Shown: piece after piece, positions 3,959 through 53,139 of the stretch
How positions within the stretch are numbered: the stretch's first letter is position 1
Layout: every line of letters starts with the position of its first letter
Sequence record: LC739535.1
DNA: 64,000 nt
From: Escherichia phage phiWec186
Direction: 5' to 3' (one strand)
Position numbers and translations under genes: made by a program
Notes under the pieces: model-generated
What the model saw: the letters and a program-made list of their open reading frames with translations, nothing else
What the model was told of the DNA's origin: nothing
The model's database searches: none

Positions 3959-4266
3959 TGAGCACATTATCAACAGCAGTCAAGTTCCACCAGGATTATG
4001 AAGAAGCTGTCAAAGATGCTGACAATCCTTCCTCGTTAGTGTTTGAGGATCGTACAGGTTTGAAGTGGGTTAAATCTTTCGATGAGATCTATTTCTGGTA
4101 TCCGCAGGGAGCCACAAGCAATAGTTCTCTGTATAGCTACGAACTGGAATACCGTGGCCCTGTAGATGAAGATGAAAACTTTATCATGTATTTCGTAAAT
4201 AATGGTTGCGGTGAAACGTTTAATGTTGTATTCTCTAAAGCAGATGAGTCTGACGAGGAGGTGTAA
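3958..4266 (+). CDS. hypothetical protein, tandem paralog A
   Basis: Start moved to the ATG at 3958 (SD GAGGAGG). Homologous to the next gene (ELEYRGP..FIMYFVNNGCGE vs ELEHRAP..FIMFCVSDGYGE). Confidence 0.55.
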   Translation: MSTLSTAVKFHQDYEEAVKDADNPSSLVFEDRTGLKWVKSFDEIYFWYPQGATSNSSLYSYELEYRGPVDEDENFIMYFVNNGCGETFNVVFSKADESDEEV

Positions 4267-4571
4267 TGCAGTACAATACGACTTTAAGTTTGGCAGTTGC
4301 AGCCCACATGCTGTACAATGATTCTGTGAAGGATGAGTTGTCGCCTGTGAGTTTAGCTTTCTATCTGATAGAAAGGGATTGGATGTTCTCTGGTGAGGAC
4401 GAAATCTACTACGTAAATTCGCGCGGTTTTATTGAAAGTTTTGAACTTGAACATCGCGCACCAACAGCAGAAGATGATCGTTTTATTATGTTCTGTGTAA
4501 GTGATGGTTACGGAGAGGTATATGATGTAGTATTCTTCAAAAACCGACAGAAGATTGAAGAGGAATTCTAA
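4266..4571 (+). CDS. hypothetical protein, tandem paralog B
   Basis: SD GAGGAGG; sequence similarity to 3958..4266. Confidence 0.55.
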   Translation: MQYNTTLSLAVAAHMLYNDSVKDELSPVSLAFYLIERDWMFSGEDEIYYVNSRGFIESFELEHRAPTAEDDRFIMFCVSDGYGEVYDVVFFKNRQKIEEEF

Positions 4572-4934
4572 ATGAAAAAGCTACTTTGTGTCCTGATGTT
4601 GATGATTGCCACCAATGCTACAGCCGCCCGTGACGGTTTCAAGATTGGGGTGGAAGGTAGCCAATTCTTCACTTGGTACGGTGGTGAAGCTGTCTACCAG
4701 GTGGATGATAAAAAGTATAACTGTAAGTTTGATCGTATAGATCGTGGAGTAGATAATTGGGGCGACGCTTATAAAGCAACAGGTTTTTATTGCACCAAAG
4801 AAATCTACATTACGGTCAAAGAACCACAAGACAACAGAAAGGTGTTGTTTATTGTGATAAACCCTGCTAAATTTGAAGAACGTAAAGCTTACTATGCAGA
4901 TATGTTCATTGAATACAAAAAGGAGGAAAAATGA
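4572..4934 (+). CDS. secreted protein with N-terminal signal peptide
   Basis: MKKLLCVLMLMIATNATA-ARD signal-peptide-like N-terminus; SD GAGGA. Confidence 0.55.
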   Translation: MKKLLCVLMLMIATNATAARDGFKIGVEGSQFFTWYGGEAVYQVDDKKYNCKFDRIDRGVDNWGDAYKATGFYCTKEIYITVKEPQDNRKVLFIVINPAKFEERKAYYADMFIEYKKEEK

Positions 4935-6544: not shown

Positions 6545-8146
6545 GTGTCTAATACTTTGAGTTTCACTCCAACCGAAGAGCAATTTGCTATTGAGCGTGC
6601 TTTCGGGGAAAACCGTTTTGTAACTATTCAAGCAAAATCTGGTTCGGGGAAAACATCTACTCTATACATGTTGGCAAATGGCACAGACAAGAGCATCCTG
6701 TACCTGGCATTCAATAAGAGCATGGCGGAAGAGGCGCGTCGCAAGATGCCGCACAATGTAGAGTGTCGAACTCTGCACTCAATCTGCTATCAGAAGCTTC
6801 CACAAAACTTACGTCACAAACTCTCGCGTCCTGAAGGGAAGTATGTGAATGTGGCGGGAACAGGTAGCGAAATTGCCAAGAAGTTTAAGATCCAAAACCT
6901 TATTGATAAAAACGGAAAGACTTTGGTCACTCGTGCTATGATCGGTTTAATGGTTAAACAAACTTTGGCTAAATATGAGTTTTCAGATGATGAGCATATC
7001 TCTTTGAAACACTTCCCTAAAATGCACATCTCTGATCTGAAACGTAAGAATGTGAATGAGAATAAGCTGATCGCAGAAGTCGTTAAATATGCAAAACAAT
7101 TGTGGCGTGAGCGTATTGATCCTAACTCGGAAACGATCATGACTCATGACACCTATGTGAAACTGTTCGAACTATCGGGCGAAGATTTAGGGTATGATAT
7201 CATCTTTGGTGATGAGTTCCAGGATGTTAACCCTGCATTCCTGTCTATCCTACGTAACGCAGAAAAGGCCAGTCGTATTGTGGTTGTAGGCGATGAGTTC
7301 CAGAGTATTTATCAGTTCCGAGGTAGTCAGAACATGATGAAAGAGACGGCTCAATATGGTGTAGAATTACCATTGACAGCATGTTTCCGTTTTGGTCCTA
7401 AAGTGGCAGACATTGCTAATGCGATCCTTAGCGATAAAACTCCACTGGCCCATCCACTGGTAGGGAAAGGGTATAACACGGTGACAGGTAGCTTCCACTC
7501 GGATATAGTGGACTTCTCCAAACCGTACACAATCATCTTCCGTAAAAACCTGACGTTGCTTATGGATGCAATGGATCGTATTGCGAACGGAGAAGATATC
7601 AATATTAACGTTGACACCAAAGATTTTATTGCTATGGTGGACAGTGTGAATGCGTTGCGTCGAGGAGATATTGACAAAGTGAAGCATGAAACCGTTCTAC
7701 CGTATGCAGACTGGCAGGAGTTTGTGGATTGTGCGGAATCAGATCCAGACGCTAAACGTCTACTGAATATTGTTGTTTCAGGTAAGGCTAACAACATTGC
7801 GTACACACTCCGTATGCACCGTAACTCACCTACAGCAAAGGTGACACTGACCACAGCACACAAATCGAAAGGTTTGGAATGGGACCAAGTTATTGTTGCA
7901 AATGACTTCCCTTCGAACTATGATAAGAAGACACGCGAGTGGGTAGGGCTGGAAGAATCTGAACGTAACCTTCTATATGTTGCTCACACACGTTGTATTA
8001 AATGTTTGCAGTGGAATGAGACAGTGCATGAGATCTTAACCATGCAGCAATTAGGAGGAGACACATCTCCTAAAATGACGGAAGAAGATGAGATGGTTGC
8101 AGCATTGGCTCGTAAGATCAAGCAGATTCGATGCGAGGAGTATTAA
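6545..8146 (+). CDS. UvrD/Rep-family (SF1) DNA helicase
   Basis: Walker A AKSGSGKTST, motif II FGDEFQD, motif III VVVGDEFQSIYQFRGS. GTG start at 6545 after AGGAGG preferred over the track TTG. Confidence 0.8.
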   Translation: MSNTLSFTPTEEQFAIERAFGENRFVTIQAKSGSGKTSTLYMLANGTDKSILYLAFNKSMAEEARRKMPHNVECRTLHSICYQKLPQNLRHKLSRPEGKYVNVAGTGSEIAKKFKIQNLIDKNGKTLVTRAMIGLMVKQTLAKYEFSDDEHISLKHFPKMHISDLKRKNVNENKLIAEVVKYAKQLWRERIDPNSETIMTHDTYVKLFELSGEDLGYDIIFGDEFQDVNPAFLSILRNAEKASRIVVVGDEFQSIYQFRGSQNMMKETAQYGVELPLTACFRFGPKVADIANAILSDKTPLAHPLVGKGYNTVTGSFHSDIVDFSKPYTIIFRKNLTLLMDAMDRIANGEDININVDTKDFIAMVDSVNALRRGDIDKVKHETVLPYADWQEFVDCAESDPDAKRLLNIVVSGKANNIAYTLRMHRNSPTAKVTLTTAHKSKGLEWDQVIVANDFPSNYDKKTREWVGLEESERNLLYVAHTRCIKCLQWNETVHEILTMQQLGGDTSPKMTEEDEMVAALARKIKQIRCEEY

Positions 8147-10552: not shown

Positions 10553-12367
10553 ATGCATAATTTATATCAGGACGTATTTTCTTTTTTGGATAAAACTTGT
10601 GACACATATACACGAGAGAACGCAAACAAACCCTCTCACCTCGTTAACACACATAGGGACTTACTGGCGGGGATTTTAAGTAAGCACATGGCAATGACTC
10701 AGATATTACCAAAGAACCTCGCAGAATGGCATACAGAAGGTTTTGGACATATCCATGATCTTGATTATCTGTTGTCTCCTCTTACGAATTGTTGTCTGGT
10801 AAACTACCAAGATATGCTGGAGAATGGCTTTAAAATCGGTGCTGCATATATTGAGAAACCTAAGTCCATTGGTGTAGCCACCACAGTGTTGACGCAAATC
10901 ATCCAGGCTGTTGCTTCAAGCCAGTATGGGGGACAAACTTGTGCTCATATTGATCAGGGGTTAAGTCAGTATGTTGAAGCTACCTACCTTAAGAATTTGA
11001 GAGAAACAGAACTACGTTACGGATACCCAGCCTGTAACGAAGCTTTAGCAGCAACAGATAAGGCTGTATATGATGCTATGCAGACATTGCTGTACCAGGT
11101 GAATACACTGATGAGCGTCAATGGACAATCTCCTTTCATCACTATCAGTATGGGATTAGATACAACAGTTTTTGGGAGAATGATCACTAAGAACTATCTT
11201 AAGGTACACAGTGAAGGGTTAGGGAAAGATCATGTCACACCTGTGTTCCCTAAAGTTGTGTTCTTCCTGGAGGAAGGTGTTAACATGGCAACTGAAGATC
11301 CTAATTACGATCTGAAAAAACAAGCTTTAGAGTGTTGTGCAGATCGAATCTATCCTGACTTCATTTCTGTGCCTCTTAACAAGGAAGTGACAGGCTCTAC
11401 GAAAGGAAATGTTACCAGTATGGGGTGCCGTTCGTTCCTGTCTTACTACACTACAGAACAGGGAGAGAAGTATGATGGACGTTTTAATTTAGGAGTTGTG
11501 TCAATAAACTTACCATTAATTGCAGCTAAAGCAAAAACAGAAGGATATTGTTTCTCTGACCTACTTGATGAACATATGCGTCTGGCTTACGATGCTCATA
11601 TGCTTCGGGTGGAACGCCTACGTCATACACGCGCATCAGAGAACCCTATCCTGTTTATGGAAGGGGCTTTAGCACGTCTCAATGCTGACGATGAGATTGG
11701 AGTTTTGTTTGAGGGTGGGTATGCTTCAATCAGTATTGGGTATGTAGGATTGTCCGAAGCTTTGGAGATCTTATACTCTGAAGAAGCGGATAAGAAAGAG
11801 ATGGGCAAAGCTATTCTGCAATACATGAAAGACACTTGTGCAGAGTTTAAAGAGTTGTCTAATCTGCCTTTCAGTTTGTATGGCACTCCTGCGGAATCCT
11901 TGTGCTACAAGTTTGCCACAGCTTTAAATAAAAATTATCCTAATCTGCATGTACGGGATTACCTGACCAACTCGTTCCATCAACCTGTTTGGGAGGTTAC
12001 AAATCCTTTTGAGAAGTGGGACTACGAAACAGGTTTTGCTCAAATCAGTAATGGCGGGAATATTAGTTATGTAGAAACTCCCAACCTGAAGAACAACTTG
12101 GAAGCTTTAGAAGCTTTGGTCGATTATGCTTATGAGCGCATCCATTACTTTGGCATCAATCAACCAGTGGATCAATGTTTCAAATGCAACTTTCATGGGG
12201 AGTTTAAAGCTACAGCAAAAGGTTTTGAATGCCCTTCGTGCGGGAATAATGAAGAAGAAACTATCTCCGTTATTCGTCGTGTTTCCGGTTATCTGTCTGC
12301 CCCTAACTCGCGCCCTTACAACAAAGGGAAAATGCAGGAAGTGTTACAAAGGGAGAAACATCTTTGA
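10553..12367 (+). CDS. nrdD: anaerobic ribonucleoside-triphosphate reductase (class III)
   Basis: C-terminal glycyl-radical motif RRVSGYLS and Zn-ribbon CFKCNF...CPSCGN; about 600 aa like phage NrdD lacking the ATP cone. Confidence 0.85.
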   Translation: MHNLYQDVFSFLDKTCDTYTRENANKPSHLVNTHRDLLAGILSKHMAMTQILPKNLAEWHTEGFGHIHDLDYLLSPLTNCCLVNYQDMLENGFKIGAAYIEKPKSIGVATTVLTQIIQAVASSQYGGQTCAHIDQGLSQYVEATYLKNLRETELRYGYPACNEALAATDKAVYDAMQTLLYQVNTLMSVNGQSPFITISMGLDTTVFGRMITKNYLKVHSEGLGKDHVTPVFPKVVFFLEEGVNMATEDPNYDLKKQALECCADRIYPDFISVPLNKEVTGSTKGNVTSMGCRSFLSYYTTEQGEKYDGRFNLGVVSINLPLIAAKAKTEGYCFSDLLDEHMRLAYDAHMLRVERLRHTRASENPILFMEGALARLNADDEIGVLFEGGYASISIGYVGLSEALEILYSEEADKKEMGKAILQYMKDTCAEFKELSNLPFSLYGTPAESLCYKFATALNKNYPNLHVRDYLTNSFHQPVWEVTNPFEKWDYETGFAQISNGGNISYVETPNLKNNLEALEALVDYAYERIHYFGINQPVDQCFKCNFHGEFKATAKGFECPSCGNNEEETISVIRRVSGYLSAPNSRPYNKGKMQEVLQREKHL

Positions 12368-12834
12368 ATTGTTCAGGCTATGAAGCAACAGACATGCTTA
12401 ACGGAGAAGGGGTGAGATGCTCTCTATGGGTCAGTGGATGTAGCCACGGATGCAGAGGATGTTTCAATCAGAAAGCCTGGTCATACTCTTACGGCGCAGC
12501 TTTCACAGAAGCAGATGTAGAACGTGTGTTAGCAGATTTGGCACGACCTTTCATTAAAGGTGTAACAATCTTAGGGGGAGAACCTTTAGACCCACAGAAT
12601 ATTGATGAAGTTTATAAGTTGATACTCCGAATCAAGGAAGTGTACGGGGAAGATAAGGATGTGATGGTGTATACAGGATATTTGTTTGAAGACATTCCTT
12701 CCCACATCAAGAATGTTGTGGATACAATCATGGATGGTAAATATGATTTAAATCAACCAACAGCAAAGCCATTCAGAGGTTCTGATAATCAGAGATTATG
12801 GAACAAGAAGAATGGTATTTGGCAAGCAGATTAA
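12364..12834 (+). CDS. nrdG: anaerobic RNR activating enzyme (radical SAM)
   Basis: NGEGVRCSLWVSGCSHGCRGC (CxxxCxxC); N-terminus aligns with E. coli NrdG if the TTG at 12364 is used. Confidence 0.8.
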   Translation: MNCSGYEATDMLNGEGVRCSLWVSGCSHGCRGCFNQKAWSYSYGAAFTEADVERVLADLARPFIKGVTILGGEPLDPQNIDEVYKLILRIKEVYGEDKDVMVYTGYLFEDIPSHIKNVVDTIMDGKYDLNQPTAKPFRGSDNQRLWNKKNGIWQAD

Positions 12835-12847
12835 TACAGGAGATAAT

Positions 12848-13039
12848 ATGGTTACGTATTTTGCAGTTAAAAACGAAGTAGGGACGGCTGGGAAGCTGAT
12901 TCTGGACAGCGATCGAGATACCCGTGAGGTTATTTGTACCCTGATTGATATTTTACAAAGAAAAGAGTTGCTTTCTGATCGGGACATTGCTAATCTATTG
13001 GATATCGGCGGTGACGAACTCGAACGACTGCCATTCTAA
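12848..13039 (+). CDS. hypothetical protein
   Basis: ATG at 12848 after AGGAGA. Confidence 0.45.
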   Translation: MVTYFAVKNEVGTAGKLILDSDRDTREVICTLIDILQRKELLSDRDIANLLDIGGDELERLPF

Positions 13040-13051
13040 AGGAGACTAACA

Positions 13052-13654
13052 ATGCAACAACTGATCGTTAATATGCCTCGCACTGGTAATGAAGTTTTTG
13101 GCTCACCAGTAGACAAAGTTTGGAAAGCACACTTTCATCTGACCTTAGCCGAGGTAAGTAGTAAAGAGCTTATGCGAGCAGCAAAGATTATCGGTGCAAA
13201 ATGCACAACTATCGATCTACATCGGGACACGCAATCACAGCGCGATCGTATGTTAACTAAGTATCAGGGTGGCATTGACACAGGCTTAATGTTGGAATGT
13301 GTGGCAAAGTTAAAAGCGGCTGGCTTCAAAGTGTTACGCTATAAACTGGAACAAATGTTCAAGGACGTAGAACACGTAATGCAGATGAACCTAAGCAAAG
13401 AACATTACGGAGAAGTACACATCAAGACTCCTGCCTCTATGCCGGAGATTGATACTGGCTTCTTCCGTATCTCTTCTAATGCCGAAGAGGTGGATTATCG
13501 TTTCTATAATGCCCGTCTGTATACCGAAGAAGATAAGTTGCAGTTCAAGAAAGCTTATGATATGCTTCTGGCAAATGATGTTGAAATAAAGGGCTACCAT
13601 GTAGAACAAGTGGTAGTAGACAGTAATCTTAACTTAGACGCATGGTGGGCTTAA
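13052..13654 (+). CDS. hypothetical protein
   Basis: SD AAGGAG upstream. Confidence 0.55.
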   Translation: MQQLIVNMPRTGNEVFGSPVDKVWKAHFHLTLAEVSSKELMRAAKIIGAKCTTIDLHRDTQSQRDRMLTKYQGGIDTGLMLECVAKLKAAGFKVLRYKLEQMFKDVEHVMQMNLSKEHYGEVHIKTPASMPEIDTGFFRISSNAEEVDYRFYNARLYTEEDKLQFKKAYDMLLANDVEIKGYHVEQVVVDSNLNLDAWWA

Positions 13655-13655
13655 T

Positions 13656-14312
13656 ATGACTATTAAACATATCTCTTTTGATGTATGGAACACACTGATC
13701 ACAGCAAACCCCAATTACGCAGATATGCGAGCGTGGACTATCGCAAAATACGGGGATATTACGGAAGTAGAAGCAAGAGCAGCTTACAAGAAGATCAAAA
13801 AGGAACTGGACAATGCCGCACTTCAGGGAACAGCCGAGTGTGCAGCATATGCCTGGGAAAGACTTGGTTACGAACTTGGGATAACACCTTTGAAGTCTGC
13901 AAAGCTTCGTTTCGAGTGTGAACAGTGGTTCCTTAAGTTTCCACCGCATGTGGCTGTGGATTTACCGATGCACTTGCTGTATCTTTCGGGGCGTTATGAT
14001 TTGAGCATCAAGAGTAATACCAACTTCATATCAGGAGATATCTTGCGACGTGCCTGTAAGTTTGAAGGTTGGAATTGTTTTGAGTTCACACATTTCTCGG
14101 ATGAAGCTTTACTTTGTAAACCAGATCCGCGATTCTTTGCTCGCACGATCACTTATTCTCCAATCCCTCTGGTAGGGCAGGAAGTGTTGCACGTAGGTGA
14201 TAGTGAAGAATATGATGGAAAATGTGTTGACGTAGGATTTAACTTCTGTCATATTAAGAACCCTAACGACTTGTTAGATAAACTTGCTAAAGGAGAACTT
14301 GTTAATGCGTAA
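13656..14312 (+). CDS. HAD-superfamily hydrolase (putative phosphatase)
   Basis: Motif I-like ISFDVWNTL and motif IV-like HVGDSEEYD. Confidence 0.5.
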   Translation: MTIKHISFDVWNTLITANPNYADMRAWTIAKYGDITEVEARAAYKKIKKELDNAALQGTAECAAYAWERLGYELGITPLKSAKLRFECEQWFLKFPPHVAVDLPMHLLYLSGRYDLSIKSNTNFISGDILRRACKFEGWNCFEFTHFSDEALLCKPDPRFFARTITYSPIPLVGQEVLHVGDSEEYDGKCVDVGFNFCHIKNPNDLLDKLAKGELVNA

Positions 14313-15132
14313 TCAAACTCAAATCTTTGCTCACAAATTCGATAGTCTGGAAACTGCTCGCTTTGATATTCGTGACTATTCCAAACTGAAGTTTGGCAGC
14401 AACCAGGCGGCTCGCCGTATGGGGCGAACGCTGGCAGTCTCTTTCTATGACTTGGTAGTCAAGAATATGCCGGAAGAAGAATTTGTGGTGATTCCTTCAC
14501 CTTACAACCATGTGCATAACGCAGCAACCATGATGACCAATCAGTTCATCAACTTCCTGAACCTGTTGCTGTTGAATCACAAGGGTAGCCGTGCAGTAGA
14601 ATTGGATACGATCCACCGCAAGGTGAGTTACATTAACGATTATGGTTTCCTGGACAAAGCGAGCCGTAAGAAACTGATTGATGGTGACACCTTCTATTGC
14701 AACAAAGATTTTTGGGGCAACAAGAAGCTGATCTTCATTGATGATGTGAACATCACGGGAACTCATGAAGACAAACTGATTGAGATCCTGGATGAAAATA
14801 AAGTTACGAATGATGTTTACTTCCTGTATTTTGCGAAGTATACTGGTAATCAAGCAGACACAGAGGCTAAACTGAACTTCAACCATATTAACACGACAGA
14901 TGCTTTTGTTAAGATGATCAATGAAGAATGTGATGCGCAGTGTCTTGTTCGTCCTATCAAGTATTTGATGGGACAAACACCGGAAGAGTTTAAAATCATT
15001 CTTTCCCGTTTGCCGCACCAATACGTAGAAGCACTGTTCTTTGGGTGTCTTGGGGAAGGTTATGATAAGATCGAGAAGTATTCTGAAAACTTCGTCTTCC
15101 TGAACCGTTACTTTAACCAGCATATCCTGTAA
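14305..15132 (+). CDS. phosphoribosyltransferase (PRT fold)
   Basis: PRPP-binding signature KKLIFIDDVNITGT; ATG at 14305 after AAGGAG. Confidence 0.55.
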   Translation: MRNQTQIFAHKFDSLETARFDIRDYSKLKFGSNQAARRMGRTLAVSFYDLVVKNMPEEEFVVIPSPYNHVHNAATMMTNQFINFLNLLLLNHKGSRAVELDTIHRKVSYINDYGFLDKASRKKLIDGDTFYCNKDFWGNKKLIFIDDVNITGTHEDKLIEILDENKVTNDVYFLYFAKYTGNQADTEAKLNFNHINTTDAFVKMINEECDAQCLVRPIKYLMGQTPEEFKIILSRLPHQYVEALFFGCLGEGYDKIEKYSENFVFLNRYFNQHIL

Positions 15133-15141
15133 GGAGGGAAA

Positions 15142-15624
15142 ATGTTGAAGGTTGTTACTGGGAATCTGATCGATGCCGCCAAGAATGGGAAAGTGAACGT
15201 TATAGCCCACTGTTGTAACTGTATGTGTAATATGGGTGCAGGGATTGCTCCGCAAATTAAACGAGCATTTCCTTATGCATATGCAGCCGACTTGGATACA
15301 GCGGCAGGTGATCAAAGCAAACTGGGTTCTTTTAGTTTAGGGGTGCCGGAGGAAGTGTCTGACCCACTGGTTTATAACCTGTACGGACAGTACCGTTACG
15401 GGTATAACGGTAAAGGTCGTCAGTTGGACTATGATGCCCTGTACGATGCTCTTGAGGCTATGGCAAAGGATCTCCACAAATGGGTGAACACATCTGCCAA
15501 ACATAAGATTGGTCTACCTATGATCGGAGCAGGGTTGGCAGGAGGTAATTGGGCTATCATTGAAGTGATGATTGAAGAAACTTTAGTAAAAACAGGTCAC
15601 GATGTGACTATTTATAAACTTTAA
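15142..15624 (+). CDS. macro-domain protein (ADP-ribose binding/processing)
   Basis: GNLIDAAKNGKVNVIAHCCNC..GAGIA and IGLPMIGAGLAGG resemble macro-domain motifs. Confidence 0.55.
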   Translation: MLKVVTGNLIDAAKNGKVNVIAHCCNCMCNMGAGIAPQIKRAFPYAYAADLDTAAGDQSKLGSFSLGVPEEVSDPLVYNLYGQYRYGYNGKGRQLDYDALYDALEAMAKDLHKWVNTSAKHKIGLPMIGAGLAGGNWAIIEVMIEETLVKTGHDVTIYKL

Positions 15625-15637
15625 GAGGAGAAATAAT

Positions 15638-15859
15638 ATGGGTGTTGTTGCAGGTGTTCTGGCAGTAGTTATCGTGTTTGTTCTGGCTTTCCTGATTAGT
15701 ATGATTCCAGCATGGCTTCTGCTGCTGGCTTATAACTACGTTGTTGAAATGATGGGTCACACAGATATCACTGTTCCTATCACCTTCTGGACTGTGGTGT
15801 GTGTGGCATTTATCATGGCTGTACTACGTGGGATCTTTTCCTCAAGTTCTTCAAAATAA
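15638..15859 (+). CDS. small membrane protein
   Basis: Two hydrophobic helices; SD AGAGGAG. Confidence 0.5.
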   Translation: MGVVAGVLAVVIVFVLAFLISMIPAWLLLLAYNYVVEMMGHTDITVPITFWTVVCVAFIMAVLRGIFSSSSSK

Positions 15860-15862
15860 GTG

Positions 15863-15890
15863 TTGACAAGGTTTTAGAATAGAGTAAGAT
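15863..15890 (+). promoter_or_regulatory. sigma70-like promoter TTGACA-N16-TAAGAT
   Basis: gtgTTGACAag context as at 1035 and 20909; followed by a gcgggga/tccccgc hairpin in the 5' UTR of the TerC gene. Confidence 0.5.
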
Positions 15891-15940
15891 GTATCACATG
15901 AGGCGGGGAGTGGTTCCCCGCAAAGAGAAAGGAGAAAATA

Positions 15941-16915
15941 ATGCAACTTGGTTTTCCAATCATTGATGTAGTGGTGTTGGTAGGTATTCTTGTTCTGTCG
16001 ATCTGTGTTGACTTTTTTGGTCATCGTGAAAACAAGGAGATCTCTTTCAAATCCGCTGTGGCTTGGTCAGTATTCTGGATTGGTGTGTCTTTAGCCTACT
16101 ACGGTTTTGTATACTTCCAGCACGGCGCAGCTTTTGCAAACTTATTCTTGAGTGGATATGTGTTAGAGAAGTCGCTCTCGGTAGATAACTTGGTAGTGTT
16201 TGTAGCAGTGTTCTCCAGTTTCGGGATTAAGAGCACACACTTACAACACAAAATTCTACTCTGGGGTATTGCAGGTGCGATTGTCTTCCGAGGTGTGTTT
16301 GTAGCAGCAGGGACTTATCTGCTAAGTTTGGGTTGGTTTGTTAATATCATCTTCGGTGCTGTTATCCTGTTCTGTGCTTTTAAAATGGTAATGGCTGGCG
16401 GTGATGATGAAGAAGTGGATTACTCTAAACATTGGGCGACACGCTTTGTACGTAAACTATTCCCAGTATCGGATCAGATGGATGGCGAGAAGTTCTTCAC
16501 AATTAAGAATGGTGTTCGTGTAGCAACTCCGGCTCTGGTTTGTGTGTTCGTGATGGAAATGGTGGATGTGATCTTTGCAGTAGACTCGGTTCCGGCTGTA
16601 ATTGCAGTGACACAAGAACCACTGCTTGTATTCTCTTCGATGCTCTGTGCAATCTTAGGCTTACGTGCTCTGTTCTTTGTTCTTAGTGTGGCCCTGAAGT
16701 ATCTGGTTCACCTGGAAAAAGCAGTTATCGCAGTCCTGGTGTTTGTTGGTGTGAAACTGATGTATCACCCGTTTGCAGAAACGCTGCACGCAAAAGTGAG
16801 CTTCCTGCCAGCGCATATTGACCCGACGATCAGCATGTATATCGTGCTTGGTACTCTGACCCTGGGCGTGATTGCAAGTTTCATCTTCCCTGAAAAAGAA
16901 GAAGCTACCGCTTAA
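15941..16915 (+). CDS. TerC-family integral membrane protein
   Basis: Multiple TM helices and the TerC-type signature GYVLEKSLSVDNLVVF. Confidence 0.75.
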   Translation: MQLGFPIIDVVVLVGILVLSICVDFFGHRENKEISFKSAVAWSVFWIGVSLAYYGFVYFQHGAAFANLFLSGYVLEKSLSVDNLVVFVAVFSSFGIKSTHLQHKILLWGIAGAIVFRGVFVAAGTYLLSLGWFVNIIFGAVILFCAFKMVMAGGDDEEVDYSKHWATRFVRKLFPVSDQMDGEKFFTIKNGVRVATPALVCVFVMEMVDVIFAVDSVPAVIAVTQEPLLVFSSMLCAILGLRALFFVLSVALKYLVHLEKAVIAVLVFVGVKLMYHPFAETLHAKVSFLPAHIDPTISMYIVLGTLTLGVIASFIFPEKEEATA

Positions 16916-16922
16916 TACCAAT

Positions 16923-16947
16923 GAACCTCCTTCGGGAGGTTTCTTAC
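16923..16947 (+). terminator. hairpin, possible weak terminator
   Basis: gaacctcc-ttcg-ggaggttc stem-loop, weak U-tract. Confidence 0.35.
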
Positions 16948-16963
16948 TAACATAGGAGGAATT

Positions 16964-17314
16964 ATGTCTGTATATTTTGACGATGTTCAGGAATATGTTT
17001 GGTGTCTTTCTGGCACAATCTCGGAAGTAGAAGCTGCGATTCAAGAGGTTTTTCCTTACGCTTATGTAGAAGTTAAACAGGCACCTCCTATGGATCTTCC
17101 CCCTAATGTGGAAGCTTGTTGTGGTTCCGGCGAGGGTACAGTCATCCCAGTTCTGCGTTACGAACTACAAGCAGCAAGTGCAAATGTCGATGATATTATT
17201 ACAGAAATTAAGGCGTATGGTTTCTGGACCTCTCCTTACGCTAAATGGGATAACTCTGACACTTGGGATTTATTCTTCTGGGATAATGAGACAGATGACG
17301 AGGTATTTCTGTAA
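16964..17314 (+). CDS. hypothetical protein
   Basis: SD AGGAGGA. Confidence 0.55.
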   Translation: MSVYFDDVQEYVWCLSGTISEVEAAIQEVFPYAYVEVKQAPPMDLPPNVEACCGSGEGTVIPVLRYELQAASANVDDIITEIKAYGFWTSPYAKWDNSDTWDLFFWDNETDDEVFL

Positions 17315-17556
17315 TGAAAGTTGTTTGGGTTGTGTTTGAAAATATTTGTTTTGCAATAGGTTTGTTCGTCATACTTTTTGTGTTGACAAACGTGATCAAT
17401 GGTAGTAAAGTATCCCTATACAAAGACGGGGAGCAGATTTACTGCTTCTCTGGAGATTTCAAACACACCTGTGTTAATATGCAGAAAGAAGAAACTCCAC
17501 ACCAGAAGTCAAGAGAAGATTTTGATTGGTGGTCACTACTTAATAACTTAAGATGA
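17314..17556 (+). CDS. small membrane protein
   Basis: TAATG overlap; one TM helix. Confidence 0.45.
   Translation: MKVVWVVFENICFAIGLFVILFVLTNVINGSKVSLYKDGEQIYCFSGDFKHTCVNMQKEETPHQKSREDFDWWSLLNNLR
17383..17411 (+). promoter_or_regulatory. candidate internal promoter TTGACA-N17-TAAAGT
   Basis: tgtgTTGACAaa context inside the 17314 ORF. Confidence 0.3.
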
Positions 17557-17565
17557 GGAGAAAAT

Positions 17566-18435
17566 ATGAAAAATATTCAGCCATTACCTGTAGTTGGGGA
17601 TTTGTATTTCTTATCTGGTACGGGTTATTCCCCAGAAGCATTAGAAGTTAACAAGAACGTCTTCCGAGTGAAAGAAATAAGAGAAGAATGTAATGAAATT
17701 GTTTTCGAAGGTATTACTAATGGAGTTCTTCAGTATGCAGAGATGCGTAGCTGCTTCCAGCAACCTTTCCGCCCGTTGGCAGACGAGTATAAGATTGCGG
17801 TAAATATTGATGATCTTAAAAAAGAACCAGGGTTCGAAGCGTTCTCTACTTTTATGGAAGATACGTATGTGGATGTAAAGAGATCTAACCTTTTCGCGGG
17901 GGATAATTTCCCTCACTTTGTGTCAGAGAAAAGTGATGGTTTTTCCGACTACGTGGATGCTGTAAACTATGATGTTTCTGAATTGACAGGAGAGCAGGAT
18001 TATCTTCTGCTGTCTCCTAAAGATTTCATGCGCGTAATGTATGCCGTAGCCGAACAGAAAAAGAAGAAAGAAAAGCTTGTAGCCAAAAAAGTTAAAAAGG
18101 TTAAAGGTAAACGTGCCAAAGGTGTTCCAGAACGTAAGCGCACCGTAAATAAGGCGACAGTCTTCTTTACCAGCGGTGAGCAATATACGATCAAAGGTTT
18201 TAAAGAAGTGGGTTACACTGCTGGCGGAAACCTTCTGTTCTTCACAGTTGCAGAAGAAGGAGAAACTTTTATCCGTTTTTCCAATATGTGGGAAATGTCT
18301 GTAGAAGATATTAAAAGTGTTGTTGTTTTAGGTGTACATAAGAGTTTCATTATTAATCAAATCTCTGATTTCAGTGCACACTTGACAGCACCAGATTTCG
18401 AAACTACCACAACAAGCTTTAACTTCAAGGTGTAA
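17566..18435 (+). CDS. hypothetical protein with Lys-rich segment
   Basis: SD GAGGAGAA; internal KKKKEKLVAKKVKKVKGKRAK stretch. Confidence 0.55.
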   Translation: MKNIQPLPVVGDLYFLSGTGYSPEALEVNKNVFRVKEIREECNEIVFEGITNGVLQYAEMRSCFQQPFRPLADEYKIAVNIDDLKKEPGFEAFSTFMEDTYVDVKRSNLFAGDNFPHFVSEKSDGFSDYVDAVNYDVSELTGEQDYLLLSPKDFMRVMYAVAEQKKKKEKLVAKKVKKVKGKRAKGVPERKRTVNKATVFFTSGEQYTIKGFKEVGYTAGGNLLFFTVAEEGETFIRFSNMWEMSVEDIKSVVVLGVHKSFIINQISDFSAHLTAPDFETTTTSFNFKV

Positions 18436-18438
18436 TGC

Positions 18439-19029
18439 ATGAATACCGAGAGAGATTTAAAACTCTTGTGGTGGGAAGTGATGCAGGAGATCAAGGAGGA
18501 TTTCCCTGTTTACTACAACATGCTACGTGAAGCTGGATATACGGCTTGCGTTAGGAACAAAGTGAATAACTCTTTCGGTTGGTGCAACTACCGAGAAAAG
18601 ATTGTTGTTGTGAATTGGCACTTGCATAAAAACTCCACAAGGGATATGATAGTGGACACAATGAAGCATGAGATTGCTCATGCGATCGACGGTTGTATGG
18701 GTAAGTTCAGTCGTCATGGACCACACTGGCAAAAGCTGGCAGCAGAGTTGGGAGCCAATCCTAAAGCTACTTCCAAAGAACCGTTAAACCATGAGTACAA
18801 ATATGTTCTTGTTTTGGTGGACAGATTTGCCACAAGATGTGTTAGAGGGTATAATCGTAAACCTAACCGTATGACTCCAGGGAAACAACCACATATTTGG
18901 TTGAAGAGTGATAAAGAGGGGACAGAAGGAAAAATATGGTTGTATAAATGGGAAGATTGGGTTAAAGTAGCTAAAGAATATGGTGTTTCACCTTACACAA
19001 GAGAAATAGAAGAGGAGAATGAAGAATGA
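18439..19029 (+). CDS. SprT-like zinc metallopeptidase (putative)
   Basis: HExxH motif MKHEIAHAIDG. Confidence 0.45.
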   Translation: MNTERDLKLLWWEVMQEIKEDFPVYYNMLREAGYTACVRNKVNNSFGWCNYREKIVVVNWHLHKNSTRDMIVDTMKHEIAHAIDGCMGKFSRHGPHWQKLAAELGANPKATSKEPLNHEYKYVLVLVDRFATRCVRGYNRKPNRMTPGKQPHIWLKSDKEGTEGKIWLYKWEDWVKVAKEYGVSPYTREIEEENEE

Positions 19030-20138
19030 CAAGTCCATTTTTGAAAGCGGCAACTGGTGGTCAAAAGAAATCTGAAACGAGTGTACTGACTGCTACTACA
19101 GATGCAAGCAAGTCCGTGTTCGCTCCGAGTGTCCTGGATGCAAGTCCAGTGTATGCTCCAGCAGCGCCAAAAGCTGTGCCTACCTTGCCAACAATGTCTC
19201 GTAAAGAGATTGAAGAAGTGGGTGCAGAAGCAGGTTTAACTCTCCGCACGCTGAATGCCGAAGTGTTAAAGCACCAACGTAGCAATCAAGGCGATGAAAT
19301 GAGCCAACGCCTTACCGCGCTGATTAAACAAGCCAAACAGCTTGATCCTGCTTCTATCAAGCAGAGCAAAGGTGTAGGCAAACTTATCAAGAAACTGATG
19401 GGTATGAAGGAAGATCTGTTCGGGGAATTCGATAATGTGAACAACCGTATCGAAGAACTCGTTAAGAATCTTCAGATGGATATTCGTAAAGAAGAAGATT
19501 CTCTGGTGTACCTGGAGAAGCTGCACCAGGCGATCGGACAGTACGCCGCAAGCCTGAATCGTGATATGGAATTACTCACAGCAGCTTATGAGCAAGAACT
19601 GGCTAACTTTGAAGCTACGCCAGAAGATGACGTAGAAGCCCGTCAACGCGTCCGTGACACGCTTGATCTTCTGGAGATACGTATTGCTGACTTGAAGGCA
19701 TTACGCTTGCTGTGCGTGCAAATGGGGCCGCGTGTATTGGGTATGCAGAAAGTATCTGCCAGCCTCATGCGTTCTGCTCGTAATATTGTGAACAATGTGA
19801 TTCCTGCTTACTCGGCAAACTTCTCGATGTATATTGAAAGTCTGCGCCAGAAGAAAGCAGCAGAAACACAGAACAACGTTCTGGACGAGTTCAACCTGGC
19901 AATCAAACTGGGTAGCGATCTTGCCACACAGAACCAGATCGAAGCAGCAGCACTGGCTAACCGCCAAGTGTTGGATATCGAAACTCTGCGTCACGATCAG
20001 GAGAACTTGGTTAAGATGTTGGAAGAAACTAACCGCATCAATACGGAAGCCCGTGCTGCCCGTGTTGATTACATCAATGAAGTTCAATCTCTCGAAGATG
20101 GGATGGTTGACGCTGTTAAGAAGGGGTTGGGTAAATGA
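19026..20138 (+). CDS. TelA-like (toxic anion resistance family) protein
   Basis: About 370 aa helical protein; segments resemble TelA/KlaB as I recall them; SD GAGGAG. Confidence 0.5.
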   Translation: MTSPFLKAATGGQKKSETSVLTATTDASKSVFAPSVLDASPVYAPAAPKAVPTLPTMSRKEIEEVGAEAGLTLRTLNAEVLKHQRSNQGDEMSQRLTALIKQAKQLDPASIKQSKGVGKLIKKLMGMKEDLFGEFDNVNNRIEELVKNLQMDIRKEEDSLVYLEKLHQAIGQYAASLNRDMELLTAAYEQELANFEATPEDDVEARQRVRDTLDLLEIRIADLKALRLLCVQMGPRVLGMQKVSASLMRSARNIVNNVIPAYSANFSMYIESLRQKKAAETQNNVLDEFNLAIKLGSDLATQNQIEAAALANRQVLDIETLRHDQENLVKMLEETNRINTEARAARVDYINEVQSLEDGMVDAVKKGLGK

Positions 20139-20341
20139 GAATCCGTGTATACATGCTTGACGAACAAGCTGGAGAAATAGGTGTTCGTTATGATGAAGAG
20201 AAACGCTTTGCCCCAATGACCCAGCTACAAACTCCAGATATTTTTGCAGCTTGTCGTGACGGATATATCTATGAAGGTTGTCGCAACTTTGGCAGATTTA
20301 AAGTTATTTCTGATGTGGAATTTAACGAGGAGGAAGAATGA
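20135..20341 (+). CDS. hypothetical protein
   Basis: ATGA-coupled. Confidence 0.5.
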   Translation: MRIRVYMLDEQAGEIGVRYDEEKRFAPMTQLQTPDIFAACRDGYIYEGCRNFGRFKVISDVEFNEEEE

Positions 20342-20508
20342 AAACATTGCGTGTGAACATCGAAACTACCTGGCGAGATTTCGAGGTTGTTGATATTGAG
20401 ATTGAAGACGATATGTCTCAAGAAGATATCGAAGATCTTGCAAAAGAAACATTTCAGGACTATTGTAATTACGGGTTCCATATTTTAGGGGAGGAAGAAG
20501 ATGTTTAA
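20338..20508 (+). CDS. hypothetical small acidic protein
   Basis: 56 aa ORF not in the track; SD GAGGAGGAAGA. Confidence 0.45.
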   Translation: MKTLRVNIETTWRDFEVVDIEIEDDMSQEDIEDLAKETFQDYCNYGFHILGEEEDV

Positions 20509-20899
20509 ACACACAAACGTAAACTTGAAATTAACAGTAACAGATCCGACTCTTTTCATCAATCTTACAAGCGGGGAAGTTTATGAAGTTATCACAGACG
20601 AGGATGGTTCTTGCTTCCTTAAAGGTTATTATCTCTGTGAATCTGATGAGTTGGTATCTATTATCACCTTGGGAGAATACGAAGAACCAGGCTTCCGTGT
20701 GGAGGTTGTTAAGAATCCCGATATTATCCAGTTGACTCGCCAAGAACTGATCACAATCATGGAAGACGCTTTTATTGATGGATGGAAGACTCAAAACTAT
20801 GATTGGAGTGGCCCAGAAGACTTCCTGCGTCTTCATAAAGAGTATGACGATTCCAGCGAAACTACTATTGCCATTGATAGTATTAAGGCTGGTGTGTAA
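20501..20899 (+). CDS. hypothetical protein
   Basis: SD GGGGAGGAAGA. Confidence 0.55.
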   Translation: MFKHTNVNLKLTVTDPTLFINLTSGEVYEVITDEDGSCFLKGYYLCESDELVSIITLGEYEEPGFRVEVVKNPDIIQLTRQELITIMEDAFIDGWKTQNYDWSGPEDFLRLHKEYDDSSETTIAIDSIKAGV

Positions 20900-20908
20900 T
20901 GAAAAGTG

Positions 20909-20937
20909 TTGACAACAATCTCCATAAGATGGATAAT
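20909..20937 (+). promoter_or_regulatory. sigma70-like promoter TTGACA-N17-GATAAT
   Basis: gtgTTGACAac context in the intergenic gap. Confidence 0.55.
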
Positions 20938-20968
20938 ACCTCCATCGAAAAAACGGGAGGAGATAAGA

Positions 20969-21241
20969 ATGTTTGATTTTAAAATAAAGGATTCAAAACC
21001 CCAAGATGTAGCAGTTCGTTTCGAAGAGTTGGGGATTGGTGAAACTTTCATGTATTATTCAGCATATGAAGAAAATGGTTTGGATACATTTGCAAACTTA
21101 GTATTCCTTAAAAGCGGCGGCGCGACTGCTGTTTGTTTGAATAGTTCATCAAGAGGGAGTGTCCATACCGTATCCCCAGATGTGCCGATGGTTGCAGTTC
21201 GTTTAGTAGTTACTGATATTACACTTACAGAGGAGAAATAA
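20969..21241 (+). CDS. hypothetical protein (paralog of 22263..22544)
   Basis: ATG at 20969 after GGGAGGAG; homologous to the 22263 product. Confidence 0.55.
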   Translation: MFDFKIKDSKPQDVAVRFEELGIGETFMYYSAYEENGLDTFANLVFLKSGGATAVCLNSSSRGSVHTVSPDVPMVAVRLVVTDITLTEEK

Positions 21242-21242
21242 T

Positions 21243-22043
21243 ATGTCCAATAAAATTAGCCTGAAGAAACGCCAAGACACCCTGACCATTTCACTGAAGA
21301 AAAAGAAAATTGTCAACGAAGATCAAAAGATCGTTCTGCGTGTTGCAAGCGCACTGGATATCTCCGGCAGCATGTCCAGCCTGTATCGTAACGGTACTGT
21401 AAGTGAGTTTGTTGGTAAGCTGCTTCCGTTTGGTATGCTGTTCGATGATAACGCGCAGATCGATATGTGGGCTTTCAACAATAGCTCTCGTGAAATCACT
21501 CCAGCAACTGCTGATGTGTATGATGATTACGTTGGTAAATGCATTAATGGTCGTGTAACAGTCCAGGGTGGCACAAGCTATGCACCTGTTATGCAGGATA
21601 TTTACGATTCCTACTTCGGTAGCACCACTAAATATGAAACTGTAGAAACCCCTGTAACCAAAGAAGTTCCTAAGAAAGGTTTCTTCAACCGTTTACTGGG
21701 TAAAACCGAAACTGTAGAAGCTATTGTAGAAAAAACTGTAGCCGTTGCTGTGCCTGGTGTAGACGTTACTCCGGCAGTTGTGTTCTTCCAGACAGATGGA
21801 GAGAACGATGATCCGAGCCGTGTACTCTCCGTACTGGAAAAGAACAAGGGTAAACCTATTTACTGGTTCATGGTGGGTGTTGGTAGTGCTCGTTTCTCTT
21901 TCCTGAAAGATTTGGCTGAAGCTTACGACAACGTAGCATTCATTGGTCTGAACGATCTTTCCTTGACAGACGAGCAGCTTTACGATAAACTCTTGTCTGA
22001 AGAGTTCGGTGAGTGGGTTGAAAAGGTTGGTGCTAAGAAATGA
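21243..22043 (+). CDS. von Willebrand factor A (vWA) domain protein, TerY-like
   Basis: MIDAS motif LDISGSM, then GGTSYAPV and VFFQTDGENDD; N-terminus shares the SxKISLKK...ISLKK start with the TerD gene. Confidence 0.65.
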   Translation: MSNKISLKKRQDTLTISLKKKKIVNEDQKIVLRVASALDISGSMSSLYRNGTVSEFVGKLLPFGMLFDDNAQIDMWAFNNSSREITPATADVYDDYVGKCINGRVTVQGGTSYAPVMQDIYDSYFGSTTKYETVETPVTKEVPKKGFFNRLLGKTETVEAIVEKTVAVAVPGVDVTPAVVFFQTDGENDDPSRVLSVLEKNKGKPIYWFMVGVGSARFSFLKDLAEAYDNVAFIGLNDLSLTDEQLYDKLLSEEFGEWVEKVGAKK

Positions 22044-22282
22044 TCGACACGCTGATCTCTCAAACGGTGTTGCAAGTGATGCGTGAGAGAGAAGCTTTCA
22101 TCATGAAGGGTCTTAAAGATTATTTTGGGACTCTTTCTTTGGAAGAACTCAAACTACGCGTTGAGATCCATGCGTATCCTTCTTATGAAGAATGGATTGA
22201 CAAAGCAAATAAAGCTGTTATAATGCGTATCAACAAACCAGAAATCACGACAGGAGGACAAGATGTTAAATTTCGCCATTAA
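22040..22282 (+). CDS. hypothetical protein
   Basis: ATGA-coupled ORF; weak SD. Confidence 0.4.
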   Translation: MIDTLISQTVLQVMREREAFIMKGLKDYFGTLSLEELKLRVEIHAYPSYEEWIDKANKAVIMRINKPEITTGGQDVKFRH

Positions 22283-22544
22283 GAAAGATAGCAAACCAAA
22301 GATTCAGACTTGTCGCATTGCAAATCTTACACATGGTGATTTGTTTGTTCTGAAAAGTGCCTACGACGAAGACGGTCTTGATCCAGAAGCAGTCGTCGTT
22401 TATATGGTGTTGCGGCGAGATGAAGACACCAAGCACCCATACAATGCGGTAGAGATGAATTACAATGCAATGTTGTGCTCAATACACTATACGGCAGAGT
22501 TGGTGCAGGTAGAGTTAACAGTTAACGAAATTAAACTTAAATAA
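22263..22544 (+). CDS. hypothetical protein (paralog of 20969..21241)
   Basis: SD AGGAGGA; sequence similarity to 20969..21241. Confidence 0.55.
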   Translation: MLNFAIKKDSKPKIQTCRIANLTHGDLFVLKSAYDEDGLDPEAVVVYMVLRRDEDTKHPYNAVEMNYNAMLCSIHYTAELVQVELTVNEIKLK

Positions 22545-22559
22545 TAGAGGAGACACATA

Positions 22560-23162
22560 ATGAGCGATAAAATTTCCCTGAAAAAAGGTTCCACCGAGAA
22601 GATTTCCCTGAAGAAAGTTGCTCCGGCACTGAAAGAACTGCGTCTGGAGTTCTCCTGGAAATCAAACTCTAAACTGGATCTGGATGTAAGCGCACTTGTA
22701 TGCCGACACAACGCCTCTGGCAACCCTGAAATGCTGTCTGCACGTCATCTGGTTTGTTATGCTAACAAGTTTGATCCAGAACGTTCTGTATTCGCAGGTG
22801 ATGATGTTCGTGACGGTACTGGTCAAATGGAACAAATCGATGTAACCTTGGCTAAGATCTCCGATAAAGCCGAAGAGATTGCTTTTGTCCTAACTATTGA
22901 TGATGAAACGGGTCAGAAACGTCTGGGTCACGCTACTGAAGGTATGCTGAAGATCTTTGATGCCGAGCGTAACGTTGAGATCCTGGACTTCGACTTCTTG
23001 GCTCCTGAAGTGGCTGGTAATACCATCTGCCACGTAGCTTCCCTGGTTCGTGAAGACGGTGAATGGAAACTGAAAGCTTACGGTGTTGGTAAAGCAGGTA
23101 TGGATATCTGTGATGTGGTTATGGCCTTCGGTGGTCAGAAAGAATGGTACGATTGCCCGTAA
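22560..23162 (+). CDS. TerD-domain protein
   Basis: TerD-like layout: N-terminal ISLKKG..ISLKK, DLDVSALV, GDDVRDGTG, FDFLAPE, C-terminal WKLKAYG. Confidence 0.7.
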   Translation: MSDKISLKKGSTEKISLKKVAPALKELRLEFSWKSNSKLDLDVSALVCRHNASGNPEMLSARHLVCYANKFDPERSVFAGDDVRDGTGQMEQIDVTLAKISDKAEEIAFVLTIDDETGQKRLGHATEGMLKIFDAERNVEILDFDFLAPEVAGNTICHVASLVREDGEWKLKAYGVGKAGMDICDVVMAFGGQKEWYDCP

Positions 23163-52404: not shown

Positions 52405-53139
52405 TTATGCTCCTGAAGGTTTCAAGGATTCCGCACTTGAGCTTCCGCTCTGAATGTTGCGAACCGTATGGGTGTGGGTATGGAAGCCAATACCATTACC
52501 GTCTGTCATCAATCCGTTCTGATCAATCTGTAGTCCGTTAATGTTTGCAGACGTGCCTTTGAAAGTCATGACACCACCTGTCAAATCCAGGGTGCCGGAA
52601 CCGTCTGTCATTGTTATTCCAGAAGGAGTAATATCAATCTTCATTCCTTGACTATTCCATATCGATATAGTGCCAGAAGGATCGAAAGATGCATACGTGT
52701 TTTTGTTATTTGAAATAACTACCTTCTCGGAATCTACTGCTTCTGTTGAATCGGTGCCTGTGGAAATCTTAGGAATAAAGCAAATCGGATATAAACCGCA
52801 AGGCTGCATTAATGTAGTCGTTGTGGCTGCTTCTCCAGAAGTTTGCATTGCATTCGAAGGATCTCGTTCAGAGAAAATAACAACACCAATATCACCGGAT
52901 TTAATAGGGAAGGAGATACGCCCTGTACCTCCTCCATTAACCATAAAAGGAACATCGTGGAAGGTTGGATAGTCGATAGAATCTTCTTCTGATCGCGTAT
53001 TCTTCACAATGGATTCCAGTGTCAGTGTTTTTGCACCGTAATTAACACCTGTAACTCGCACTGGTAATGAGGTATGCACCTCTGCCAGTTGTTCTGTCAT
53101 CATGCCACGCATTGCTGTGACAAAGTTCAAAGCATCCAT
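52405..53139 (-). CDS. baseplate central spike protein (gpV/gp5-like)
   Basis: Gly-rich beta-helical C-terminus ending in GFHTHTHTV (His-x-His apex-type motif); position before the wedge gene. Confidence 0.5.
   Translation of the reverse strand: MDALNFVTAMRGMMTEQLAEVHTSLPVRVTGVNYGAKTLTLESIVKNTRSEEDSIDYPTFHDVPFMVNGGGTGRISFPIKSGDIGVVIFSERDPSNAMQTSGEAATTTTLMQPCGLYPICFIPKISTGTDSTEAVDSEKVVISNNKNTYASFDPSGTISIWNSQGMKIDITPSGITMTDGSGTLDLTGGVMTFKGTSANINGLQIDQNGLMTDGNGIGFHTHTHTVRNIQSGSSSAESLKPSGA

Follow-up and report, generated by a model that had tools for sequence, protein, structure and literature searches.

A stand-alone macro-domain gene of the Tk.4/Adpp family in Escherichia phage phiWec186 and its possible role against host ADP-ribosylation

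The open reading frame at 15142-15624 of the phiWec186 window (the whole stretch of DNA analysed, 64,000 nt) encodes a macro domain and would yield a stand-alone, competent macrodomain hydrolase of the widespread Tk.4/Adpp phage family. The window is 100% identical to the Escherichia phages phiWec179 and phiWec181 (Phapecoctavirus, Stephanstirmvirinae) and corresponds to positions 58521-122520 of the phiWec181 record. The macro protein itself is 100% identical in both phages, whose records annotate it as 'hypothetical protein'. From its relatives and their gene neighbourhoods we infer a substrate and a biological role: by analogy to T4, there is about an even chance that its main task is the removal of DarT2-type thymidine ADP-ribosylation from phage DNA. 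The gene adds an unannotated member to a known family, for which functions were established experimentally in 2025-2026, and represents no new kind of system. Features of the locus are compiled in Table 1.

Table 1 Coordinates of the macro-domain gene, its active-site codons and its neighbours in the window
Feature	Position	Strand	Remarks
HAD-like protein	13656..14312	+	Motif I DxW; PHROG 14393; first gene of the HAD-PRTase_3 pair; context
PRTase_3 (ComF-like) phosphoribosyltransferase	14305..15132	+	8-nt overlap with the HAD gene; context
Ribosome-binding site GGAGGG	15133..15138	+	3 nt 5' of the macro ATG; read from the sequence
Macro-domain ORF	15142..15624	+	160 aa, ATG at 15142, stand-alone; Tk.4/Adpp family, PHROG 335
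His23-Cys-Cys-Asn26 codons	15208..15219	+	From alignments
Gly32-Ala33-Gly34	15235..15243	+	GxG substrate-binding loop; from conservation and alignments
Gln83 codon	15388..15390	+	Aligns with SCO6735 Q85, TARG1 K84 and DarG K80 (PMC9411070)
Gly129-Ala-Gly-Leu-Ala-Gly-Gly135	15526..15546	+	Diphosphate-binding loop; from conservation and alignments
73-aa predicted membrane protein	15638..15859	+	Between macro gene and TerC; conserved in the subfamily
TerC/Alx-family membrane protein	15941..16915	+	Context
SprT-like	18439-19029		Ter-like cluster
TelA-like protein	19026..20138	+	Ter-like cluster
vWA-TerF-like	21243-22043		Ter-like cluster
TerD	22560-23162		Ter-like cluster

Macro fold and active site

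The first-pass annotation had read the motifs of this product as those of an ADP-ribose-binding macro domain, and family profiles, matches to solved structures and structure prediction confirm that identification far beyond chance. Searches with hidden Markov models placed the protein just above threshold for the Pfam Macro family (PF01661, E 7.9e-5; 23.0 bits against a gathering score of 22, a marginal pass) and in PHROG 335 with an E-value of 6.1e-58. Direct sequence searches against solved macrodomains retrieved SCO6735 (6e-13), BT1257 (3e-9), T. aquaticus DarG (2.6e-7), TARG1 (7e-7) and Poa1p (3e-5), and a family profile built from 51 homologues matched BT1257 at 1e-23, SCO6735 at 1e-20 and TARG1 at 5e-17 in the PDB. 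AlphaFold2, supplied with the alignment of the same 51 homologues, returned a macro fold (pLDDT 92.3, pTM 0.90): a three-layer alpha/beta arrangement with conserved GxG and glycine-rich diphosphate loops. The best PDB matches of this model in Foldseek were TARG1 (2e-12), BT1257, Poa1p, DarG and SCO6735, with E-values of 2e-12 to 1e-8, and nearly all of the top 50 were macrodomains.

Residues were assigned from a MAFFT alignment with characterised relatives and from HMMER alignments with a residue table, all of which agree. Columns invariant among the 51 homologues include N26, G34, N79, Y81, Q83, P126, G129, G131, G135 and W137, and they map to the ADP-ribose-binding loops. His23 aligns with H24 of Adpp and H23 of Poa1p, Asn26 with N27 of SCO6735 and N22 of DarG, and Ala133 with D125 of TARG1. 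The loop that follows Gln83 is of the long form, with a length as in SCO6735; such a long mobile loop is typical of the SCO6735/BT1257 subclass (PMC9411070). N26, Q83 and G131 (Gly128 in SCO6735) together with this loop are the features of that Gln-type, ALC1-like subclass, and the Tk.4/Adpp family as a whole falls into the ALC1-like/TARG1-SCO6735 class.

In SCO6735, the substitutions N27S and Q85A abolished the hydrolysis of DarT-made thymidine-ADP-ribose (PMC9411070). Since the counterparts of these two essential residues, N26 and Q83, are conserved along with His23 and the ligand-binding loops, the phage protein looks catalytically competent and of the Gln type. By analogy to SCO6735, Asn26 would hold Gln83, which in turn would orient the distal ribose for cleavage by way of a water molecule, and the enzyme would bind ADP-ribose and cleave off the group carried on its 1'' carbon.

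The HAD-PRTase_3 pair and the Ter-like cluster

The gene's ribosome-binding site lies immediately 3' of the codon that ends the upstream PRTase gene (15130-15132), and a scan of 12300-17400 for promoters and terminators gave consensus-level matches only, which define no separate transcription unit. The first-pass annotation had combined the macro gene with the adjacent PRTase and HAD genes into one route for processing ADP-ribose or NAD-derived metabolites. Both neighbours are real: the PRTase matches PF15610 (PRTase_3) with an E-value of 6.7e-41 and the HAD-like protein matches PHROG 14393 'hydrolase' at 9e-114, its PF00702 match staying below the cut-off. The joint function, in contrast, finds no support in the distributions of the three genes.

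A common pathway would suit the local arrangement, as HAD, PRTase_3 and macro genes lie adjacent on one strand with tight spacing and no convincing terminator between them, and the order HAD-PRTase_3-macro-TerC is maintained in two Stephanstirmvirinae genera. We nevertheless consider it very improbable. Macro homologues occur in 2,995 of 50,697 phage records, with a single matching place in each record listed, whereas PRTase_3 homologues occur in 156. HAD, PRTase_3 and TerC were all found within 8 kb of a macro homologue in 4 of 80 IMG/VR viral loci, every one of them Stephanstirmvirinae-type, and the closest macro homologues outside this subfamily, in phiTE (51%) and AV124 (48%), have unrelated neighbours. 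Seen from the other side, 37 PRTase_3 loci were examined, 16 of them viral and 21 bacterial (Rhizobium, Ensifer and Sinorhizobium chromosomes or plasmids, and Bacteroidales MAGs). The HAD gene stood directly upstream of PRTase_3 in 36 of the 37, and a macro homologue lay within 10 kb in the six Stephanstirmvirinae-type loci and in one other, where it was 7 kb away; outside Stephanstirmvirinae this amounts to 1 of 31 PRTase_3 loci, and conserved co-occurrence of the macro gene with the pair across lineages was not seen. HAD-PRTase_3 is retained without a neighbouring macro gene in phages of Xanthomonas, Rhizobium and Brevundimonas, and the same holds for rhizobial chromosomes and plasmids and for Bacteroidales; even in the phi92-like relatives, PRTase_3 and the macro domain have additional coding sequence between them. 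The company of the pair points elsewhere, too: TerD, vWA-TerF, TelA or TerC lay within 10 kb of it in nine non-Stephanstirmvirinae loci, NAD+ genes in only 4 of 40 loci. On the chemical side, the product of a type I PRTase is a ribose-5-phosphate glycoside, which lacks the ADP moiety that a macro domain would bind.

Because the distributions of the macro gene and PRTase_3 do not match and the pair occurs without the macro gene, HAD-PRTase_3 is a separate conserved two-gene module, often found with Ter genes, and a functional partnership of the macro protein with it is not supported. That the enzyme was recruited into the Ter-like cluster in Stephanstirmvirinae to process a HAD-PRTase_3 product is very improbable. 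The locus is a caution on deducing function from adjacency, the pair belonging to a different, Ter-associated module.

The phage-borne Ter-like cluster spans 13656-23162, is opened by HAD-PRTase_3 and has the macro gene inside it. In 2012, Anantharaman, Iyer and Aravind reportedly proposed a Ter-linked 'nucleoside-like metabolite' module (cited through PMC8115787), and the combination of HAD-PRTase_3 with the Ter-like cluster in the window fits that module.

Several observations concern the pair and its surroundings in their own right. Motif I of the PRTase_3-paired HAD family (codons 9-13, ~13680-13694) reads 'SFD(V/F)W(N/L)TL': every one of the ~40 homologues, whether from phages, rhizobia or Bacteroidales, has DxW (with Tyr for Trp in one of them) where DxD is canonical. 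HAD phosphatases use the Asp at +2 as general acid; the PRTase_3-paired HAD lacks this residue and may be no ordinary phosphatase. The HAD to PRTase_3 order is also kept in large uncultured phages. In Rhizobium phage RHph_TM21B (5862-6425), an annotated bifunctional NMN adenylyltransferase/NUDIX gene stands two genes downstream of HAD-PRTase_3, an isolated hint of a link between PRTase_3 and NAD that is absent from most other loci. Directly upstream of the HAD gene, a 200-aa ORF (13052-13654) matches PHROG 22504 and, weakly and below threshold, DUF559; some members of the subfamily conserve it, at 74-97% identity. The annotated macro protein of phi92-like phages carries an N-terminal extension of ~90 aa (Bas60 bas60_0070; locus L127, 12833-13567), for which Pfam gave no match and which phiWec181 lacks. 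This extension weakly resembles (pairwise E 3e-6) the N-terminal part of a MazG-like ORF located between PRTase_3 and the macro gene in two other relatives (L015, ~4010-4610; L017, ~7450-8000).

NAD+ and ADP-ribose genes and the candidate substrates

Across the family, the macro gene keeps company with other genes than in this window. Within 8 kb of the macro homologue in the 80 viral loci, NAMPT/Namat-like genes were found in 28 and Prs/Adps-like genes in 24, followed by NUDIX (16), SIR2 (15), HAD_SAK_2 (12) and NADAR (11), so that about one third of the sampled members adjoin NAD+ salvage or reconstitution genes. The phosphoribosyltransferases that recur beside the family are thus the NAMPT/Namat-like and Prs/Adps-like ones, not PRTase_3. 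Two of the homologues, 48-49% identical, belong to NAD islands of the order NUDIX - NAMPT - (NADAR) - macro - HAD_SAK_2 - SIR2 - Prs - Thg1. The Tk.4/Adpp family is tied to NAD+/ADP-ribose biology. In the literature, the share of phages recorded as having a macro domain is 40% for medium-sized phages, 56% for jumbo phages and 41% for myoviruses, and macro domains show a tendency to co-occur with NADAR (PMC9503650). NAD islands with macro homologues at 48-54% identity were seen on contigs of ~14 to 370 kb, several exceeding 200 kb, and NADAR and macro genes are often neighbours in them.

The phage at hand presents a sparser set. A search of phiWec181 bases 1-150000 found no NAMPT, Prs, NUDIX-NMNAT, Adps or Namat homologue, and no NARP1 or NARP2 genes were seen in this phage. 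Translated BLAST (tblastn) together with Pfam located a NADAR gene in phiWec181 (LC739534.1) at 52592-53119 on the minus strand (PF08719, E 1e-33; PHROG 1017), and a SIR2/CobB-like gene lies at 15686-16486 on the plus strand of the same record (PF02146, 1e-19). NADAR of T4 and the related phages Bas60-62 neutralises DarTG1 and is inactive on DarT2 products (PMC11825919); the phiWec181 NADAR probably corresponds to AdfN, the anti-DarTG1 protein of Bas60-62.

Two members of the family have been tied to defence systems. T4 tk.4, named adfM, is the single T4 gene that turns essential on a DarTG2 host, as confirmed with a clean knockout; the evidence comes from a preprint and is genetic only (bioRxiv 10.1101/2025.11.20.689424). 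The second is Adpp, encoded inside some NARP1 operons. The aRES defence breaks NAD+ down into nicotinamide and ADP-ribose-1''-phosphate, and the latter is of no use to NARP1; Adpp turns ADP-ribose-1''-phosphate into ADP-ribose in vitro and is also needed in vivo, inactivation of its gene abolishing the anti-defence effect against aRES (bioRxiv 10.64898/2026.01.28.702374). The first-pass guess that the gene counters host ADP-ribosylation or NAD-depleting immunity agrees, by analogy, with both precedents.

We favour the DarT2-type role for the phiWec protein because its setting is T4-like: the macro gene is an orphan, NADAR is encoded elsewhere in the genome and no pathway for NAD+ reconstitution was seen. 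The occurrence of NADAR beside the macro homologue in some of the 80 viral loci counted above is in keeping with it. In the proposed mechanism, the enzyme would probably be made early, with the surrounding nucleotide-metabolism genes, and would serve in counter-defence: DarT2-type toxins modify thymidines of single-stranded phage DNA, and the macro enzyme would strip off the ADP-ribose so that replication continues. Pulling the other way, the nearest biochemically tested relative, Adpp, is a 1''-phosphatase and no DNA glycohydrolase.

Adpp supplies the main competing account, in which the protein would chiefly convert ADP-ribose-1''-phosphate, formed by aRES-type RES-domain NADases or as a by-product of RNA repair, to ADP-ribose and so detoxify or recycle a breakdown product of NAD+. 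Its closest tested match is Adpp of Vibrio phage Gary (KNV71_gp137), with 40% identity over the full length (104 bits, E 6e-34), and the NARP1-linked macro proteins of Table S1 of the Adpp preprint (e.g. PaYy-2 and JG004) are 43-46% identical to the phiWec protein. The histidine targeted in Adpp is conserved as His23, H24A being among the mutants constructed in the supplement, and aRES is present in E. coli (bioRxiv 10.64898/2026.01.28.702374). As His23, Asn26 and Gln83 are held in common with Adpp, the phiWec protein probably dephosphorylates ADP-ribose-1''-phosphate as well, and the frequent NAMPT/Namat-like and Prs/Adps-like neighbours of the family also speak for an Adpp-like function. As the main role, however, we regard it as rather unlikely. 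Neither the window nor phiWec181 bases 1-150000 places the gene beside an Adps-Namat operon, and among the 150 kb searched the phage has no Adps, Namat, NAMPT, Prs or NMNAT homologue, so that the ADP-ribose produced would have no phage route back to NAD+. T4, moreover, keeps a family member for a different purpose. To our knowledge T4 likewise lacks NARP1. Adpp, for its part, functions only within the three-gene operon Adps-Adpp-Namat (bioRxiv 10.64898/2026.01.28.702374).

The family itself draws no line between the two activities. In a neighbour-joining tree, the phage macro proteins form one poorly resolved radiation, sister to SCO6735/BT1257, in which NARP1-linked, NAD-island-linked and orphan members are interspersed; the Stephanstirmvirinae clade includes orphan members. 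A column-by-column comparison of the alignment revealed no column that separates NAD-linked from orphan members, the catalytic residues being common to all and the maximum total-variation distance of any column (0.69) tracking clade composition. A split into Adpp-like and Tk.4-like members was accordingly discarded, and since neither tree nor columns separate them, sequence cannot assign the substrate. An initial AdfM-like assignment from the T4 Tk.4 match alone was likewise revised in the light of the NAD+ genes near close homologues and of the Adpp preprint.

One active site might also do both jobs, dephosphorylating ADP-ribose-1''-phosphate against aRES and cleaving thymine-N3-linked ADP-ribose on DNA against DarTG2. 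This is conceivable because both substituents sit on the same 1'' carbon, and we hold it as a tentative idea, somewhat on the doubtful side. If true, two unrelated defences that both consume NAD would be countered by one protein of 160 aa, and the interspersion of NARP1-linked, NAD-island-linked and orphan members with identical catalytic residues would be explained.

A broader alternative is that the enzyme reverses or regulates some other ADP-ribose chemistry: O-acetyl-ADP-ribose from the phage's own Sir2/CobB-like enzyme, protein or RNA ADP-ribosylated by host or phage transferases, or ADP-ribose-derived immune signals. ADP-ribose linked to Glu/Asp of proteins is a further substrate of TARG1 and SCO6735 (PMC9411070), and Iyer et al. 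2022 made the case for soluble ADP-ribose derivatives as the main targets of phage macro domains (PMC9503650). SIR2 is phage-encoded here and recurs near macro homologues in the 80 loci, but in this phage it lies ~58 kb from the macro gene, and the roles demonstrated for family members are the two others. Substrates of this kind seem to us improbable, and more so than an Adpp-type role.

The analysis lends a likely function to a gene that carries the label 'hypothetical protein' or 'phosphatase' in phages of Phapecoctavirus and Justusliebigvirus, which are of interest for phage therapy, and these phages are predicted to resist DarTG2 and possibly aRES. With its macro and NADAR genes, the phage would own the same pair of ADP-ribose erasers as T4. 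More generally, two recently described counter-defence activities, Adpp and Tk.4/AdfM, fall into one sequence family that current sequence analysis leaves unsplit, and the gene bears on the question of whether that family is bifunctional.

Comparison with characterised macro proteins

Among the eukaryotic enzymes, yeast Poa1p and human TARG1/OARD1 have the same fold (Foldseek E-values of 2e-12 to 9e-11) and share His23 and the GxG loop with the phage protein; at the position of Gln83 they carry Ser (Poa1p) and Lys (TARG1) instead, and both lack the long loop.

The macrodomain of the DarG2 antitoxin and PhiKZ gp104 'AdfM' (PMC13309987) resemble the phiWec protein in the macro fold and have a role in the removal of ADP-ribose from DNA. 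The PADLOC DarG model matched residues 1-159 at 3e-12, over profile positions 1-144 of 329, whereas the NCBIfam DarG profile scored 43.7 bits against a cut-off of 250, its best stretch covering positions 2-58 of 338. DarG and PhiKZ gp104 are of the Lys type (K80/K78), unlike the Gln-type phiWec protein, and in DarG2 the macrodomain is joined to a C-terminal DarT-binding domain and encoded next to DarT, whereas the 160-aa protein has no fused domain of this kind and its gene no DarT neighbour. PhiKZ gp104, DarG/Lys-type and without significant BLAST similarity to the phiWec protein, was dismissed as a relative. The name 'AdfM' hence covers two non-orthologous macro proteins, Gln-type T4 Tk.4 and DarG/Lys-type PhiKZ gp104. 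PHROG 335, which includes the phiWec protein, Gary Adpp, the NARP1-linked JG004 protein, T4 Tk.4 and PhiKZ gp104, lumps Tk.4, PhiKZ gp104 and Adpp under 'phosphatase'.

SCO6735 of Streptomyces coelicolor (PDB 5E3B) and BT1257 (PDB 2FG1) are the best sequence matches among solved structures and share the Asn, the Gln, the glycine loop and the long loop. They differ in being bacterial chromosomal genes with ~30% identity to the phiWec protein, and the DNA-contacting Lys34 and Lys89 of SCO6735 correspond to Ala33 and Gly87, with Arg85 nearby. With 15 K+R against 16 D+E, as counted from the sequence, the protein is not basic, and its composition would lend no particular support to DNA binding. SCO6735 hydrolyses DarT-made thymidine-ADP-ribose on DNA (PMC9411070).

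Gary Adpp, the closest relative tested biochemically, is of the same size, belongs to the same PHROG, is likewise a stand-alone phage protein and shows the same His, Asn and Gln with the glycine loops. It differs in context: Adpp is encoded between Adps and Namat and depends on them, whereas the phiWec gene adjoins PRTase_3 and a small membrane protein.

T4 Tk.4, finally, shows significant full-length homology (35% identity, E 6e-23) and, like Adpp, has His23, Asn26, Gln83 and the glycine loops in common with the phiWec protein. Its loop after the catalytic Gln is short, unlike the long SCO6735/BT1257-type loop of the phiWec protein, and tk.4 lies in the tk/vs region, unlike the phiWec gene in its Ter-like cluster. 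In both phages, large lytic myoviruses of E. coli, an orphan macro gene of PHROG 335 with Gln at the catalytic position occurs together with a NADAR gene and without NARP1.
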